A DNA stretch of 64,000 nucleotides from Marinovum sp. (GTDB taxonomy: Bacteria > Pseudomonadota > Alphaproteobacteria > Rhodobacterales > Rhodobacteraceae), in the NCBI RefSeq assembly GCF_048263515.1, contig NZ_JBLXEC010000018.1, positions 20,420 to 84,419 of the forward strand. Direction: 5' to 3'. Below the pieces are notes generated by a model. It worked only from the letters and a program-made list of their open reading frames with translations, was not told the origin of the DNA and made no database searches. The first letter of the stretch is position 1; each line of letters begins with the position of its first letter. A program made the position numbers and the translations under genes. Positions 4,645 to 39,848 of this stretch are shown one piece after another.

Positions 4645-5163
4645 GTGACTGACATGGTGTCGCGGGTCACGCGAACAGGCGCTATTGGCGCAATAATTCT
4701 GAGTATCTGGATGGGGATGGCCACCGCGCAGGAGACGCGCGGTCCGGTGACGAACCTGCCCTTGCCGCGGTTCGTCTCGCTCAAGGCGAGCGAGGGCAAC
4801 GTGCGCCGCGGGCCGTCGCTGTCGCATCGCATCGACTGGGTGTTCAAGCGGCGCGACATGCCGCTCGAGGTGACGGCGGAATACGGCCACTGGCGCCGGG
4901 TGCGCGACCGCGAGGGCGCCGGCGGCTGGGTGCATTACGCGCTGCTCTCGGGCTCGCGCACGGTGATCGTCGACGGCGATCTGCTGGCGTTGCACGTGCG
5001 CCCCGACGGGCGCACCCCGGTCAAGGCGCGGCTCGAGCGCGGGGTGATCGCGCGGCTGGGCGATTGCGACCTGGAATGGTGCGAGGTAAGCTCCGGCGGC
5101 TACAAGGGCTGGGCCGAGAAGCGCGCGCTCTGGGGCGTGGCGCCCGATGAAATCCGGGAGTGA
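4645..5163 (+). CDS. Double bacterial SH3-domain secreted protein
   Basis: Signal peptide; LPRFVSLK..NVRRGPS..WRRVRD..GWV and second WCEV..GW repeat. Confidence 0.85.
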   Translation: MTDMVSRVTRTGAIGAIILSIWMGMATAQETRGPVTNLPLPRFVSLKASEGNVRRGPSLSHRIDWVFKRRDMPLEVTAEYGHWRRVRDREGAGGWVHYALLSGSRTVIVDGDLLALHVRPDGRTPVKARLERGVIARLGDCDLEWCEVSSGGYKGWAEKRALWGVAPDEIRE

Positions 5164-5181
5164 CTTTGGGGTGAAGCCCTT

Positions 5182-5570
5182 GGCGCGGAACAAGGCTGAA
5201 GGCCGCCGCGCCATCGCCGGTCCGCCCCCACGGCACGGCGATTGGTTGACGTGCGCGCACCGCTCTTTCAAAGCGCGCCAGTGGCCGGGATAAACCGAAC
5301 AGACCTCAGGTTGGATCGCCGCACCGCGGCCCGACGATGACACAGCCTGCACGGTGGGTCTGACAGACGGGGCGCGGAATCAAGGCCGAAGGCCGCCGCG
5401 CCATCGCCGGGCCGCCCCCCGGCACGGCGATTGGTTGGCCTGAGCGCATCGCTCTTTCAAAGCGCGCCAGTGGCCGGGATAAATCACACAGACCTCAGGT
5501 TGGATCGCCGTGCCGCGGCCCGACAATGACACGGCTTGTGCGGTGGGTCTGACGGGGCGAGGCGCGGGAT
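5182..5570. repeat. Tandem ~189-bp repeat (2 full copies plus start of a third), each folding as a long imperfect hairpin
   Basis: Units start at 5182, 5371 and 5561; shared blocks GGCCGCCGCGCCATCGCCGG, CGCTCTTTCAAAGCGCGCCAGTGGCCGGGATAAA and CAGACCTCAGGTTGGATCGCCG; 21-bp arms 5205-5225/5326-5346 and 5395-5415/5515-5535. Confidence 0.95.
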
Positions 5571-5640
5571 TAAAGCCGCAGACCGACGCGGCATCGACGC
5601 ACCGCCCCCCGTCAATGACGCCGTGAGACCAGACCTCAGT

Positions 5641-6348
5641 TCACCCCTTGAACGCCGCCTCCAGCGCAATCTCCACCATGTCGCCGAAACTTTTCTCCCG
5701 CTGCTCGGACGGCAGCGCCTCGCCGGTCAGCAGGTGGTCCGACACCGTCAGCACCGCCAAGGCCCGCACCTTGTGCCGCAACGCGAGGATATAGAGCTCG
5801 GCCGCCTCCATCTCGACACCGAGAATGCCGTGGCGGGTCATCTGCTCGTTGAGGTCGGGGCGCTCGTCGTAGAACACGTCGGACGAATAGATCCCGCCCA
5901 CATGGGTCGGCGTTCCCCGCGCCTCGGCCGCTTCGGCCGCCGCCCGCAACAGGCCATAGTCCGCACAAGGCGCAAAGTTCAGCTCGCGCAGGATCCCACG
6001 CGACGGCGTCGACAAGGTGGTCGAGGTCATCGCGATGATGATGTCGCGGACCTTGACGGCTTCCTGCATGGCCCCGCACGACCCGATGCGGATCAGCGTC
6101 TTGGCGCCATAGTCGCGGATCAGCTCGTTGGCATAGATCGACAGCGAGGCCATCCCCATGCCGGAGCCCTGGATGGTGACGCGCTGGCCCTTCCAGGTGC
6201 CGGTATAGCCCAGCATGCCGCGCACCTCGTTGATGCAGACCGCATCCTCGAGAAAGGTCTCGGCCGCCCAGCGCGCCCGGTAGGGATCGCCCGGCATCAG
6301 CACGGTTTCAGCGATGTCGCCGGGCTTGGCCCCGATGTGGATGGTCAT
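5641..6348 (-). CDS. deoD: Purine-nucleoside phosphorylase
   Basis: [35 protein letters not shown]. Confidence 0.95.
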
Positions 6349-21338: not shown

Positions 21339-21383
21339 ACGTTTTGCCGTTGTCAAAGCCTTGGCCCATCGCATAAAGTCGCC

Positions 21384-21545
21384 GCGACTCGACGGGAGAA
21401 CCGGCCATGCCGGTGCCGAAGGAGCAACCGCCCCGGAAACTCTCAGGCCCCGAGGACCGTCGAAGTCGCAAAAATCTGGAGAGATCCCGGCCTTGTCCGG
21501 GGCGCCGAAGGGATAACGATCTCAGGCAGAAGGACAGATGGGGCA
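21384..21545 (+). promoter_or_regulatory. Tandem glycine riboswitch
   Basis: Two aptamers with GGAGA...GCCGAAGG...CTC(A)GG signatures; P1 GCGACTCGACGG/CCGTCGAAGTCGC; upstream of gcvT. Confidence 0.93.
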
Positions 21546-23150: not shown

Positions 23151-23233
23151 GCCCTTTCCGCCGGGGGCTGCGGGTCTTGCCTGCCAGCCCCCGGTGGAAG
23201 ATTGCCTGGCCAGTTGACGCAGGAGCTGCGCGC

Positions 23234-26083
<2,850 letters not shown>

Positions 26084-26149: not shown

Positions 26150-26184
26150 AAAACGGCCGCCCGCTGAAGCAGGCGGCCGTTTTT
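26150..26184 (+). terminator. Intrinsic (bidirectional) terminator after gcvP
   Basis: AAAACGGCCGCC-CGCTGAAGCA-GGCGGCCGTTTTT. Confidence 0.8.
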
Positions 26185-26211
26185 CATAAAGCTTGCAATA
26201 GCCCATACGGT

Positions 26212-26375
26212 GCCGGGCCAGCGGCTGCCCGCGGGGTGCCGCGGCCCCCGCAGTTCGGCAGCGCTTTATCCCGGCCAAATCCGCAGAAGTTCAGGTCGAC
26301 GCGCCCAGCCCAGCCATAGCGGCAGCCCGATGGGGCGGGCAGCCGCTGGCCCGGCGGGCTTCGCCCTTGTTCCGG
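26212..26375 (-). repeat. Diverged inverted copy of the 5.2-kb hairpin element
   Basis: Reverse complement shares CGGAACAAGG..GAAG.CCGCCG.GCCA.CG and TGGCCGGGATAAA; perfect 21-bp arms 26212-26232/26335-26355. Confidence 0.8.
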
Positions 26376-26400
26376 GCCGGGACGATATTCGAAGGGGGGC

Positions 26401-26423
26401 GGTGGGGTGGAACCCCACCCTAC
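26401..26423 (-). repeat. Isolated REP of the RAYT family
   Basis: Reverse complement GTAG-GGTGGGGT-TCC-ACCCCACC. Confidence 0.85.
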
Positions 26424-26457: not shown

Positions 26458-27351
26458 TCACTCCGCGAGGCTCTCGCTCTCGGGCTTCGGACCCAGCAGG
26501 AAGCCAAGCTCTGCCGCCACGGTGTTCCAGGCCGCCTCGGAGCCGGCGCAGAGCAGGTAGCCTTCTTTCTCGGCCACCGAATATTCCCGCCCGTCGAGGA
26601 ACGCCACGTGACCGCCGGCCTTCTGGCACAGCAGCACACCGGCGGCGTGATCCCAAGGCGTCATCTTGCACGACAGCACGAAATCGCAATGCCCCTCGGC
26701 CAGCAGCCGGTACTCATGCGCCGAGCAGCGCAGCGCATCCGGCCGGCCGATCCGCGGATAGAGCGCCGCGACCTGCGGCTGCACATCCGCGGGCATCAGC
26801 TTGAGGTGAATGTAGCCCACCATCTCGGCCAGGGTCTTCGGCTCGGCGGTGGTCAGCGTGCGGCGCCGGCCGCGCGGGCCGGTCCAGGTGGTCAGGCTGT
26901 CTTCATCCGCCACCACCACGTCATCGTTGAGCGGGTCGTAGATCATGCCGTAGACCGGCTTGCCGAAGCGCGTCGCCGCGACCATCGTGCCAAAGAGCGA
27001 CAGCCCGTGGGCAAAGTTCCATGTGCCGTCGACCGGATCGATCAGAAAGCCCAGTTCGGCATCGCCCAGGGCATCGAGGATCTTCGGATCGCGCGAGGCC
27101 GCCTCTTCACCGACGATCACCGCCGAGGGAAAGGCCATCTGCAAGCCGCGGGTGATCATCGCCTCGGCAGCCTCGTCGGCGGCGGTGACGAGGTCGAGCT
27201 TGGATGTCTTCTCGGAGATCTCCGACGGGTCGAGCGCGCGGAACCGCGGCAGGATCTCGGCCTTGGCGGCGCGGCGGACGAGATTGAGAAGCGCTGTCTT
27301 CTGCGCGCGGGTCAGCGGCGCATGCACGGCCATCGGCAGGTTGTCTGACAT
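26458..27351 (-). CDS. Inositol monophosphatase family protein
   Basis: DLVTAADEAAE, GEE, IDPVDGTWNF, PWDHAAG. Confidence 0.92.
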   Translation of the reverse strand: MSDNLPMAVHAPLTRAQKTALLNLVRRAAKAEILPRFRALDPSEISEKTSKLDLVTAADEAAEAMITRGLQMAFPSAVIVGEEAASRDPKILDALGDAELGFLIDPVDGTWNFAHGLSLFGTMVAATRFGKPVYGMIYDPLNDDVVVADEDSLTTWTGPRGRRRTLTTAEPKTLAEMVGYIHLKLMPADVQPQVAALYPRIGRPDALRCSAHEYRLLAEGHCDFVLSCKMTPWDHAAGVLLCQKAGGHVAFLDGREYSVAEKEGYLLCAGSEAAWNTVAAELGFLLGPKPESESLAE

Positions 27352-36748: not shown

Positions 36749-37132
36749 ATGACAGAGACCCAATCGGCGCCGGACGGAGAGCTGACCCTGCGCACGCTGG
36801 CAATGCCGGCCGACACCAACGTCAACGGCGACATCTTCGGCGGCTGGGTGCTGAGCCAGATGGACATGGCCGCCGGCATCGTCGCCGGCGAAAAGGCGCA
36901 GGGCCGGGTGGCCACCATCGCCGTCGACGCGATGAAGTTCATCCGCCCGGTCAAGGTGGGCGACGTGCTCTGCGTCTACTGCCACATCGCGCGGGTGGGC
37001 CGGACCTCGATGGCGATCGAGGTCGAAGCCTGGGTCCGCCGCGAGCGCATGGGCATGCGCGAGAAGGTGACCGAGGCGATCTTTACCTTCGTGGCGATCG
37101 ACGGCGACGGGAGACCGCGCGAGGTCCCGTAG
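36749..37132 (+). CDS. Acyl-CoA thioesterase (YciA-like hotdog fold)
   Basis: MPADTNVNGDIFGGWVLSQMD. Confidence 0.92.
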   Translation: MTETQSAPDGELTLRTLAMPADTNVNGDIFGGWVLSQMDMAAGIVAGEKAQGRVATIAVDAMKFIRPVKVGDVLCVYCHIARVGRTSMAIEVEAWVRRERMGMREKVTEAIFTFVAIDGDGRPREVP

Positions 37133-37185
37133 GGTGGGTTTCCAACCCACCTTTTCGGGCGCGGTGGGTTGAAAACCCACCCCGC
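37129..37185. repeat. Inverted REP pair (REPIN-like) upstream of RAYT
   Basis: GTAGGGTGGGTTTCCAACCCACC (37129-37151) and reverse GGTGGGTTGAAAACCCACCCCGC (37163-37185). Confidence 0.9.
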
Positions 37186-37225
37186 GGTTACCTCGTGTTA
37201 ATCGCTTTTCGGGCAGTTTCGGCGC

Positions 37226-37837
37226 ATGCCGAACTACATTCGCCCGAAGGCCAGAGGGGCCACCATCTTCTTCACCGTCGCCCTCGCACAGCGCGGCGCG
37301 ACGCTTCTGACCGACGAGATCGAGCTGCTGCGCGATGCCGTCAGGGTCACCCGCGCGCGCCGGCCCTTTGTGATCGAGGCCTGCGTGGTGCTGCCGGACC
37401 ACCTGCACATGCTCTGGACCCTGCCATCTGACGATAGCAATTATTCCGACCGCTGGGGCGCGATCAAGGCGCGGTTCTCCAAGAGGGTGCGGCTGAAGCG
37501 GGGGGATGCGGTGGGTTGCAAACCCACCCTACGAGAGGCGGCGTCGTCCGGTTCTGCCCGCTCTGACGTAGAGCGACTGAGGGCGCGCCGCTCGGCCAGT
37601 AAGGTGAAGAAGCAGGACGCCGGCATCTGGCAGCGGCGGTTCTGGGAGCATCACATCCGCGACCGCACCGACTTGGAAAACCACATCAGGTGTTGCTGGG
37701 GCAATCCGGTAAAACACGGGCTGGTCGAGAGGCCGGTGGATTGGCGGTATTCCTCGATCCATCGCGATGTGCGGCTGGGGCGGGTGGAGCCGGAGTGGCG
37801 CTGCGGCGATCTGCGCGACATGTTCGGAGAGCCGTAG
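37226..37837 (+). mobile_element. REP-associated tyrosine transposase (RAYT/TnpA-REP); catalytic Tyr apparently replaced by Cys
   Basis: FFTV, HUH motif PDHLH, WQRRFWEHHIRD, NPVKHG, DWRYSS; flanked by REPs. Confidence 0.92.
37510..37532 (-). repeat. REP embedded in-frame within the RAYT CDS
   Basis: Reverse complement GTAG-GGTGGGTT-TGC-AACCCACC; encodes VGCKPTL. Confidence 0.9.
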
Positions 37838-38005
37838 GGTGGGTCTGTGACCCACCGCAGCGGGGCATTAGGCACGGGGCAAGCCCGCGAGATAACCCCG
37901 TAGGGTGGGTCTGTGACCCACCATGCCGCGGAGCTTCCGCCAAGGCGGTGGGTTGAAAACCCACCCTACGGGCCGCATCGGGTGCGCCGAGACGGCGCAC
38001 CCTGT
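37834..38005. repeat. REP cluster downstream of RAYT
   Basis: GTAGGGTGGGTCTGTGACCCACC at 37834-37856 and 37900-37922; reverse REP 37947-37969; variant hairpin GGGTGCGCCG-AGA-CGGCGCACCC 37980-38002. Confidence 0.9.
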
Positions 38006-38008
38006 ATC

Positions 38009-39664
<1,656 letters not shown>

Positions 39665-39776: not shown

Positions 39777-39848
39777 GGTGGGTTACAAACCCACCCTACG
39801 GTGAAGCGCACGACGGACAGGACGGGTAGGGTGGGTTTGCAACCCACC
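39777..39848. repeat. Divergent REP pair between ettA and MOSC gene
   Basis: Reverse REP 39777-39799 and forward GTAGGGTGGGTTTGCAACCCACC 39826-39848. Confidence 0.9.

Follow-up and report, generated by a model that had tools for sequence, protein, structure and literature searches.

A polar palindromic repeat downstream of gcvP in Marinovum sp. and its relatives across the Rhodobacterales

The stretch of DNA analysed here (the window) comprises 64,000 nucleotides of Marinovum sp. (Rhodobacteraceae; RefSeq assembly GCF_048263515.1, contig NZ_JBLXEC010000018.1, positions 20,420 to 84,419). Within it, gcvP (23177-26083, plus strand) and a gene of the inositol-monophosphatase family (26458-27351, minus strand) converge on a spacer that holds, counted from gcvP, a terminator hairpin, a palindromic element referred to as copy 3, and a repetitive extragenic palindrome (REP) tagged with GTAG. 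Copy 3 displays two arms of 21 nt each (26212-26232, GCCGGGCCAGCGGCTGCCCGC, and 26335-26355), which are 100% complementary with 102 nt between them. No other perfect inverted repeat in the window reaches 17 nt with a spacer above 30 nt; the other top-ranked inverted repeats are REP doublets. Copy 3 belongs to a family of ~170-nt palindromic repeats that is widespread in Rhodobacterales and apparently has not been described before. A comparison of family members supports a fold that is under selection or actively maintained. The features of the spacer, with copy 3 given from its 5' to its 3' end, are as follows.

26209..26381, minus strand (the top strand of the unit is the minus strand of the window): copy 3, complete 173-nt unit; covariance model R1, 136.2 bits, E 2e-32, model positions 1-172.
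26372..26378, minus strand: 5' S1 word, GGCCCGG, able to pair with S1' (26348-26354).
26356..26366, minus strand: mini-hairpin GGGC-GAA-GCCC, a C(GNA)G triloop that includes GCGAAGC; 99.6% paired in the family, with a covarying stem (CG 89 / GC 31).
26335..26355, minus strand: 5' arm of the rod, with S1' (CCGGGCC, 26348-26354) followed by the box AGCGGCTGCCCG; inverted repeat, the rod helices of the family being 91-95% paired.
26318..26329, minus strand: 5' strand of the inner stem, CGGGCTGCCGCT, with its partner at 26233-26244; the inner helix is 94.9% paired in the family.
26265..26277, minus strand: central word TGGCCGGGATAAA, of which the ATAAA core is the conserved part; exact in all three copies of the window.
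26233..26244, minus strand: 3' strand of the inner stem, CCGCGGCACCCC, from the covariance model and the family pair counts.
26212..26232, minus strand: 3' arm of the rod, whose last bases (26213-26219) are the 3' S1, GGCCCGG, which repeats the 5' S1 in direct orientation; model positions 6, 31 and 164 covary as a triple.
26150..26183, plus strand: intrinsic-terminator-like hairpin of gcvP; inverted repeat of 16 nt, 94% complementary, then TTTT.
26401..26423, minus strand: GTAG-tagged REP hairpin GTAGGGTGGGGTTCCACCCCACC, of a separate repeat family, 20 nt from the 5' end of copy 3.

The boundaries of the unit were set by multi-copy breakpoints at 26212 and 26378 in relatives, together with BLAST matches that cover the element alone. 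In the assemblies of the nearest organisms, contigs end at these boundaries and the depth between them rises to 15-25x that of the flanks, which corresponds to roughly 15-25 copies in close relatives.

Two further complete copies and a remnant are found in the window, near 5.2 kb.

5179..5349, plus strand: copy 1, in tandem, of a subfamily other than that of copy 3; R1 124.9 bits; its outer stem has four C-A pairs and one other mismatch.
5368..5538, plus strand: copy 2, in tandem with copy 1 at a 189-nt period; R1 127.1 bits; direct repeat of 89% identity.
5558..5625, plus strand: degenerate stub of a third tandem unit; R1 17.3 bits, E 0.004, and alignment.

The stub is the single further match of R1 in the window beyond the three copies, whose reverse strands score just 20-27 bits. 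A preliminary description, made from the sequence alone, had presented copy 3 as a third, diverged copy of the 5.2-kb unit with compensatory changes. Homology is indeed significant (R1 136, 127 and 125 bits for copies 3, 2 and 1), and its readings of the arms are borne out by the sequence. The copy-3 arm differs from the copy-2 arm (GCCGCGCCATCGCCGGGCCGC, 5395-5415) at 5 of 21 positions, and all five complements are present in the partner arm. The arms of copies 1 and 2 have 4 or 5 mismatches, nearly all of them C-A, and are separated by 100 and 99 nt, respectively. Copy 3 lies on the strand opposite to copies 1 and 2, and its arm differences are those between two subfamilies of a multi-copy family, which did not arise at the gcvP locus. 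The loop motif TGGCCGGGATAAA, reported as retained, is exact in all three copies (5282, plus; 5471, plus; 26265, minus); at up to two mismatches it has five matches in the window, a number reached in 0 of 100 shuffles. Family-wide, only its ATAAA part is conserved. The stretch CGGAACAAGG..GAAG, i.e., CGGAA(T)CAAGG-NN-GAAG, is likewise common to the window copies, but it belongs to the repeated unit as part of its 5' module, and is not the flank it was taken for. Beside copies 1 and 2, the open reading frame (ORF) at 4645-5163 (plus strand) encodes a bacterial SH3-domain protein (Pfam SH3_4, E 6e-33) and ends 15 nt before copy 1; at the other end of the array, the degenerate unit (5558-5643) reaches about 15 nt from the deoD stop codon (5641-5643, minus strand), so that the array abuts the end of that gene.

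Relatives of the element were sought in species-representative genomes with one pattern scan, which returned at least 117 loci among the matches listed. These are essentially all from Rhodobacterales, in about 20 genera of Roseobacteraceae and Paracoccaceae; one match in Breznakiella lies inside a gene and is a chance hit. BLAST against plasmids added unannotated intergenic relatives in Pseudosulfitobacter, Salipiger, Sulfitobacter, Paroceanicella, and Roseinatronobacter. The covariance model R1, built from 32 diverse copies, retrieved 125 top-strand copies, many of them outside the pattern selection. They occupy 100 loci, both chromosomal and plasmid-borne, in at least 20 genera of Rhodobacterales. 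The family is unannotated in all records examined, no description of it was found in the literature on REP-, MITE- (miniature inverted-repeat transposable element) and REPIN-type (REP doublet forming a hairpin) repeats of Rhodobacterales or the Roseobacter group, and 50,697 phage records yielded 0 matches.

The unit has a fixed polarity. Its top strand reads S1, AAUCAAGG (AA(U)CAAGG), the C(GNA)G mini-hairpin, S1', the outer stem, the inner stem, the centre, the return strands, and S1 again. S1 is a 7-nt word, usually GGCGCGG, that is GGCCCGG in copy 3. Its complement S1' opens the 5' arm and is followed by a box, A(U/G)CGCC-N3-CCG. The rod measures about 30 bp and consists of an outer stem of 20 bp and an inner stem of 8-10 bp, separated by an asymmetric internal loop (a C-rich bulge of 4-6 nt); past the C-rich bulge comes the inverted box, CGG-N3-GGCG(A/C)U. 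The centre is variable, spans about 75 nt, and contains ...UUGG...GGG-AUAAA.... The 3' end consists of the return strands of the stems, the second S1, and U(U/C). The mini-hairpin has a covarying stem of 4-5 bp and a loop of three bases. In 24 copies that lie outside the pattern selection, the GNA loop is closed by C-G in 22 (GAA 12, GCA 8, GTA 1, GGA 1), and ATAAA is kept in nearly all while the rest of the central word varies. That a protein recognises the central word, as the preliminary description suggested, may be inferred only.

The fold composed of the mini-hairpin and the outer and inner stems is 94.3% paired over the 125 copies, against 79.8% in column shuffles, and pairing falls to 33-48% when the partners are slid as a control. 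Changes on both sides are seen in 19 of the 32 pairs; doubly changed cells number 474, whereas the shuffles give 139. An inner-stem pair (79-178), for instance, occurs as UA 49 / CG 27 / GC 14 / AU 6. When all 118 copies from the pattern scan are counted without selection or gaps, the outer 20 bp are 90% Watson-Crick, and well over ten arm variants are found, each with a matching partner. The selection on structure proposed from the three window copies, or else an active maintenance of the fold, is supported by structural alignment of the larger set, in which the arms do covary. Single-sequence folds are weakly significant in the GC-rich DNA concerned (z -1.9 to -2.8); the case for the fold rests for this reason on the comparative evidence.

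As the two boxes are alike, each arm might also fold locally, as an alternative to the rod. The variable N3 positions (columns 41-43) allow the two folds to be told apart: among about 127 copies, they form Watson-Crick pairs with the distant partner of the rod in 126, 116, and 118, and with the local-hairpin partner in 81, 71, and 97. Pairing in the local hairpins amounts to 90.9% on the left and 71.9% on the right. Since N3 pairs with the distant partner, and less with the local one, the rod is the maintained fold, and two local REP-like hairpins can be discarded as the selected fold.

The same positions bear on an explanation without any folded strand, in which the palindromic boxes ATCGCC-N3-CCG / CGG-N3-GGCGAT would be bound in duplex DNA by a dimeric host protein (a nucleoid-associated protein, topoisomerase or recombinase), in a mosaic resembling BIMEs or RIMEs. 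The complementarity of the arms would then be a by-product of palindromic sites and of quasi-palindrome correction. In ordinary duplex DNA, the left box pair does constitute an inverted repeat (12 - 4-to-6 - 12); the cores of the boxes are conserved order-wide, and position 36 (T or G) switches jointly in all four box copies. Such binding would also suit the location of copies between convergent genes, where supercoiling accumulates, and the mosaics with REPs seen in Salipiger, Roseovarius, and one metagenome-assembled genome (MAG). A dimer on duplex DNA, however, does not require N3 to covary with the distant rod partner instead of the adjacent half-site. The box pair on the right makes a poor palindrome (72% paired), the boxes include neither the outer 8 bp nor the triple covariation of S1 (see below), and strict polarity and head-to-tail clusters are unexpected for a symmetric site. 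We consider a duplex site quite unlikely.

A second pairing overlaps the rod. The helix between the 5' S1 and S1' is 91.3% paired in the 125 copies, one of its pairs occurring as GC 88 / CG 25 / AU 7, and the S1' column involved also covaries with the 3' S1. S1' may therefore pair with either S1, which defines two mutually exclusive helices, and the direct repeat at the ends of the unit tracks its internal complement. Both the rod and the alternative S1:S1' pairing are kept by compensatory changes in many subfamilies. No further conserved helix is predicted in the centre by RNAalifold over the 125 copies. An apical TTT/AAA stem around the loop word, present in the DNA fold of one copy (locus L002), was rejected, as positions 102-103 vary while AAA is fixed.

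With respect to genes, the convergent setting already noted at gcvP generalises: among 94 copies with callable neighbours, 58 (62%) are in convergent spacers, 17 and 16 in co-directional ones, and 3 in divergent ones. The copies thus sit at gene 3' ends without a preferred strand relative to the genes. With respect to each other, orientation is shared. In the first set, adjacent copies had the same orientation 28:0, including 10:0 for those separated by more than 400 nt, which occupied different spacers at distances of 1-5 kb; one adjacent pair of opposite orientation (L105) was found later. Head-to-tail clusters are common, some of which are duplicated higher-order units and others mix subfamilies (L004, L049, L081). 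Furthermore, the top strand is the G-rich strand at 68 of 105 loci (p 0.003), as judged from the sign of the GC skew of 8-kb pieces. Flank logos of 121 copies reveal no direct repeat outside the unit and no shared conserved flank, only a weak C-richness at -4..-1, a T at +1 (94/121), and T/C at +2, after which there is no bias. The 824 ORFs neighbouring the copies, clustered all-against-all, contain common families only, the largest with 24 members, and the genes between neighbouring copies are housekeeping ones (ribosomal proteins, RecQ-like, Fab, PurL, Pgk, and similar).

Strong covariation is what is used to define RNA families, and mutually exclusive helices are a feature of RNA switches. 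The element could accordingly be a structured non-coding RNA or a cis-acting RNA element, such as a 3'-end stabiliser, a roadblock, or a small RNA with a conserved seed. Its site just past stop codons makes read-through transcription likely, and RNA energies favour the top over the bottom strand in 86 of 118 copies. RNA-labelled contig sets of the nearest organism hold element arms, although these matches are fragmentary and unstranded, of mixed origin and possibly due to DNA carry-over, and hence uninformative. Against an RNA element, the copies are not biased in orientation with respect to the gene upstream (16 co-directional copies in one sense, >E>, against 17 in the other, <E<), the unconserved flanks leave no shared promoter, and no U or T run follows the rod in the 121 flanks, just T then T/C, unlike an intrinsic terminator. 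Rfam 15 matched only the glycine riboswitch in the window at the gathering threshold, and at E up to 10 both loci gave noise only, well under gathering scores. Shared orientation between neighbours and its correlation with GC skew are DNA-level properties, and GNA triloops mark DNA rather than RNA stability. An RNA element is therefore doubtful.

The reading that we favour, at a probability of about one half, is that copy 3 is a member of a non-autonomous family of mobile palindromes, REPIN- or MITE-like, that acts as folded single-stranded DNA. A mobile palindrome is preferred to an RNA gene because the copies are dispersed and numerous, form subfamilies within genomes, turn over in their spacers, avoid the promoter side, are indifferent to gene direction, and share a polarity. 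Folded single-stranded DNA is proposed as the working form because of the C-G-closed GNA triloop, the replication-strand lean, and the long-range folding requirement. Mini-hairpins of the d(GCGAAGC) type were reportedly found in the 1990s by Hirao, Yoshizawa and colleagues to be exceptionally stable in DNA. The top strand would fold when exposed, e.g., in the lagging-strand template, and its ATCGCC-N3-CCG boxes, mini-hairpin, and ATAAA would be read in trans by an enzyme, be it an HUH/Y1-type transposase or a folded-DNA recombinase. S1' might serve as an internal 7-nt guide that pairs alternately with the identical S1 end words, thereby presenting both ends for cleavage and joining. The complementarity of the arms would persist since only folding-competent copies propagate. 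Template switching at quasi-palindromes may also copy changes from arm to arm without selection, but it alone explains neither the conservation of the unpaired modules nor the triple covariation of S1. A benefit to the host, e.g., 3'-end protection or insulation of convergent genes, would be secondary.

Several observations weigh against a mobile single-stranded palindrome. No transposase or recombinase was found in the 8-kb neighbourhoods of the copies, nor any protein family recurring beside them. The 121 flanks show no target-site duplication and only their weak C-richness on the 5' side, and no clean pair of filled and empty sites with exact junctions was seen among the loci compared. The guide role of S1' can only be inferred. 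The strand bias is modest (~65:35), and many of the 8-kb pieces come from the same genomes and are hence not independent; copies 1-2 and copy 3 are themselves oppositely oriented under the same window skew sign. As to the folding strand, C-A outnumbers G-T among the near-complementary cells of the rod when read on the top strand (77 vs 44; 84 vs 41 in a second count), which would favour the bottom strand and conflicts with the mini-hairpin evidence. RNA parameters make the top strand the more stable one in the 86 of 118 copies cited above, and DNA parameters make no difference. Wobble counts and fold energies thus contradict each other.

A related but more specific possibility, which we hold to be unlikely, is that the family is a second REPIN-like system: an order-wide, mostly vertically inherited replicator of single-stranded DNA, with its own single-copy enzyme, whose ends would be recognised by the self-encoded S1' guide, as in IS200/IS605, but through full helices that switch between two states.

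The preliminary description had also linked copy 3 to the RAYT-type REP beside it. A GTAG REP is indeed present 20 nt from the unit, and the window carries the corresponding transposase gene.

37226..37837, plus strand: gene of a RAYT (REP-associated tyrosine transposase); NCBIfam NF047646, E 3e-47; PDB 4ER8 TnpArep, E 8.6e-36.

The REP 10-mer GTAGGGTGGG has eight exact occurrences in the window, and GTAG REPs containing it flank the RAYT gene. Inverted GTAG REP doublets, REPIN-like in form, are located at 37127-37187, 37832-37972, and 39777-39848, and flank the RAYT gene and an ABC-ATPase-like gene (38009-39664). It could thus be supposed that the element is a long REPIN variant mobilised by this RAYT, the rod with its two inverted boxes being REPIN-like in outline. 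In Salipiger abyssi, moreover, most copies are placed between two inverted GTAG REPs, and a whole REP-bounded segment is inverted between two strains. Neither copy 3 nor the 172-position consensus, however, possesses a GTAG or CTAC tag, and R1 finds no copy of the element at the RAYT gene, where GTAG REPs are the flanking repeats. A GTAG-tagged hairpin occurs within 80 nt of only 12 of the 125 family copies, which excludes REP adjacency as a family trait; the 3.5-fold higher density of such hairpins compares spacers with mostly coding DNA. The unit is also polar and asymmetric, unlike a REP doublet. Mobilisation by the RAYT is therefore very unlikely, and the link drawn earlier is not supported. 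The GTAG REP is the partner of the RAYT in a separate system, and its adjacency to copy 3 appears incidental, both repeat families occupying the same permissive spacers.

The RAYT gene itself is open and, relative to Escherichia coli TnpA-REP, contains an in-frame insert of about 41 codons (~37499-37621), with query residues 92-132 unmatched. The insert includes a REP hairpin, GGTGGGTTGCAAACCCACCCTAC (37510-37532); apparently, a REP has inserted into the gene of its own transposase.

Among known repeats, the element is best filed as an order-wide variant of the REPIN/MITE kind, with an unusual polar and switchable architecture. Like REPs and REPINs with their RAYTs, it is extragenic, multi-copy and non-coding, resides at gene 3' ends, persists order-wide with subfamilies within genomes, and likely depends on a single-stranded DNA mechanism. 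It differs by its length (~170 nt, against 20-40 nt for REPs and 70-110 nt for REPINs), by the lack of a GTAG or CGTC tag, and by a strong polarity, with a 27-nt 5' module, the GNA mini-hairpin, ATAAA, and the S1 direct repeats. Its long hairpin, which contains two inverted ATCGCC-N3-CCG boxes, recalls the two inverted units of a REPIN, but it is an asymmetric rod with extra modules, and the RAYT gene of the window is flanked by another repeat.

With the IS200/IS605 family and its non-autonomous derivatives (PATEs) the element shares the absence of terminal inverted repeats at the very ends and of target duplication; subterminal hairpins, a fixed active strand, and a replication-strand bias may be further parallels (the bias of the element is ~65:35 only, from a crude GC-skew proxy, with both orientations in the window). 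Members of that family recognise their ends by internal guides, adjacent to the hairpin, pairing with the cleavage sites, and S1' is complementary to both S1 words. Their guides, in contrast, are of 4-5 nt and non-canonical, with a left cleavage site in the flank, as compared with a 7-bp Watson-Crick pairing and identical end words in the element. Its right local hairpin is weak (71.9%, left 90.9%), and no TnpA or TnpB was seen. As to their conserved 4-5-nt target, the flank of the element is only weakly C-rich beyond S1; S1 itself would fit if it were the target.

MITEs and mosaic repeats (Correia/NEMIS, ERIC, RIME, BIME) are of the same size class, intergenic, imperfect long palindromes found in clusters or mosaics, with possible effects on transcripts. 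The inverted repeat of the element, however, is internal, starting 27 nt inside the 5' boundary, so that the ends bear no terminal repeat. The 121 copies lack a target-site duplication, and the 8-kb neighbourhoods lack a parent insertion sequence. The S1 direct repeats are not copied target sequence, because S1 covaries with the internal S1'. Conservation of single-stranded modules at the level of an order is also unusual for MITEs. Integron attC sites, finally, work as a folded single strand, keep their pairing while the sequence varies, combine two protein-binding boxes with an asymmetric unpaired spacer, and form arrays in one orientation, features that the element shares or, as regards the single-stranded substrate and the binding of protein, would share. 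Its consensus nonetheless has no RYYYAAC or GTTRRRY core, neither cassettes nor an integrase are nearby, the neighbours being housekeeping genes, and it is dispersed across the genome with long conserved unpaired modules.

The spacers that carry the element differ between relatives. Downstream of 80 metagenomic gcvP loci (protein 77-96% identical), 79 are without the element. The closest metagenomic relative (L123, 3400-3500) has in the same spacer a collapsed copy of 43 nt, in which the 5' module is joined to the 3' S1; this copy is oriented opposite to copy 3, and the locus has no separate gcvP terminator hairpin. Four more distant relatives keep the convergent gene pair, with spacers of 22-78 nt against 374 nt in the window. 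On plasmids of Pseudosulfitobacter pseudonitzschiae whose flanks are 97.7% identical, the same spacer houses different subfamilies on opposite strands (H46 vs TT37-68). In another Pseudosulfitobacter plasmid allele (L121, 700-1010, compared with L003, 1400-1760), the centre has been deleted between two direct copies of the CGGC(A/C)C box, leaving a short hairpin and a 38-nt duplication bounded by ACGGCTT. Strains SY10-16 and JLT2014 (plasmid pPABY2) of Salipiger abyssi carry the element and its short spacers in inverted orientation to each other (L015, 2540-2860, vs L122, 940-1230), with breakpoints in the two flanking inverted GTAG REPs, which suggests that the enclosed segment was inverted via the REPs.

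The elements are markers of spacers in which near-identical plasmids differ by rearrangement, inversion or replacement, which is relevant to strain typing and to the plasticity of plasmids and chromosomes of abundant marine bacteria. The family is frequent enough to break short-read assemblies, and the model would improve the annotation of genomes and plasmids in the Roseobacter group and Paracoccaceae. Order-wide persistence is rare among small bacterial repeats; REPIN-RAYT, the known order-wide case, gave rise to the idea of long-lived intragenomic replicators. A 30-bp rod, a GNA mini-hairpin, and two exclusive helices kept through dozens of arm variants point to a dedicated partner enzyme, and the kept fold to a structure-reading, possibly self-guided mechanism.

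Three minor observations concern the loci surveyed. In the MAG "Rhodobacter sp. MO_188.B50" (L005, L012, L043-L052, and others) and at L004, a second repeat (GCGGACGTTCG... / ...AACGTCCGC), from the CCGCTTTG-N-CAAAGCGG hairpin class, encloses each element with a pair of inverted copies, and the local repeat unit is hence ~225 nt. In a contig labelled as a Thioalkalivibrio MAG (L073), the element and its flanks are nearly identical to the locus of a Rhodobacteraceae MAG (L010), and the contig is probably mis-binned. In the window, the glycine riboswitch aptamer (Rfam RF00504, 52.6 bits) lies at 21383-21469 (plus strand), upstream of the gcv genes that end in gcvP.

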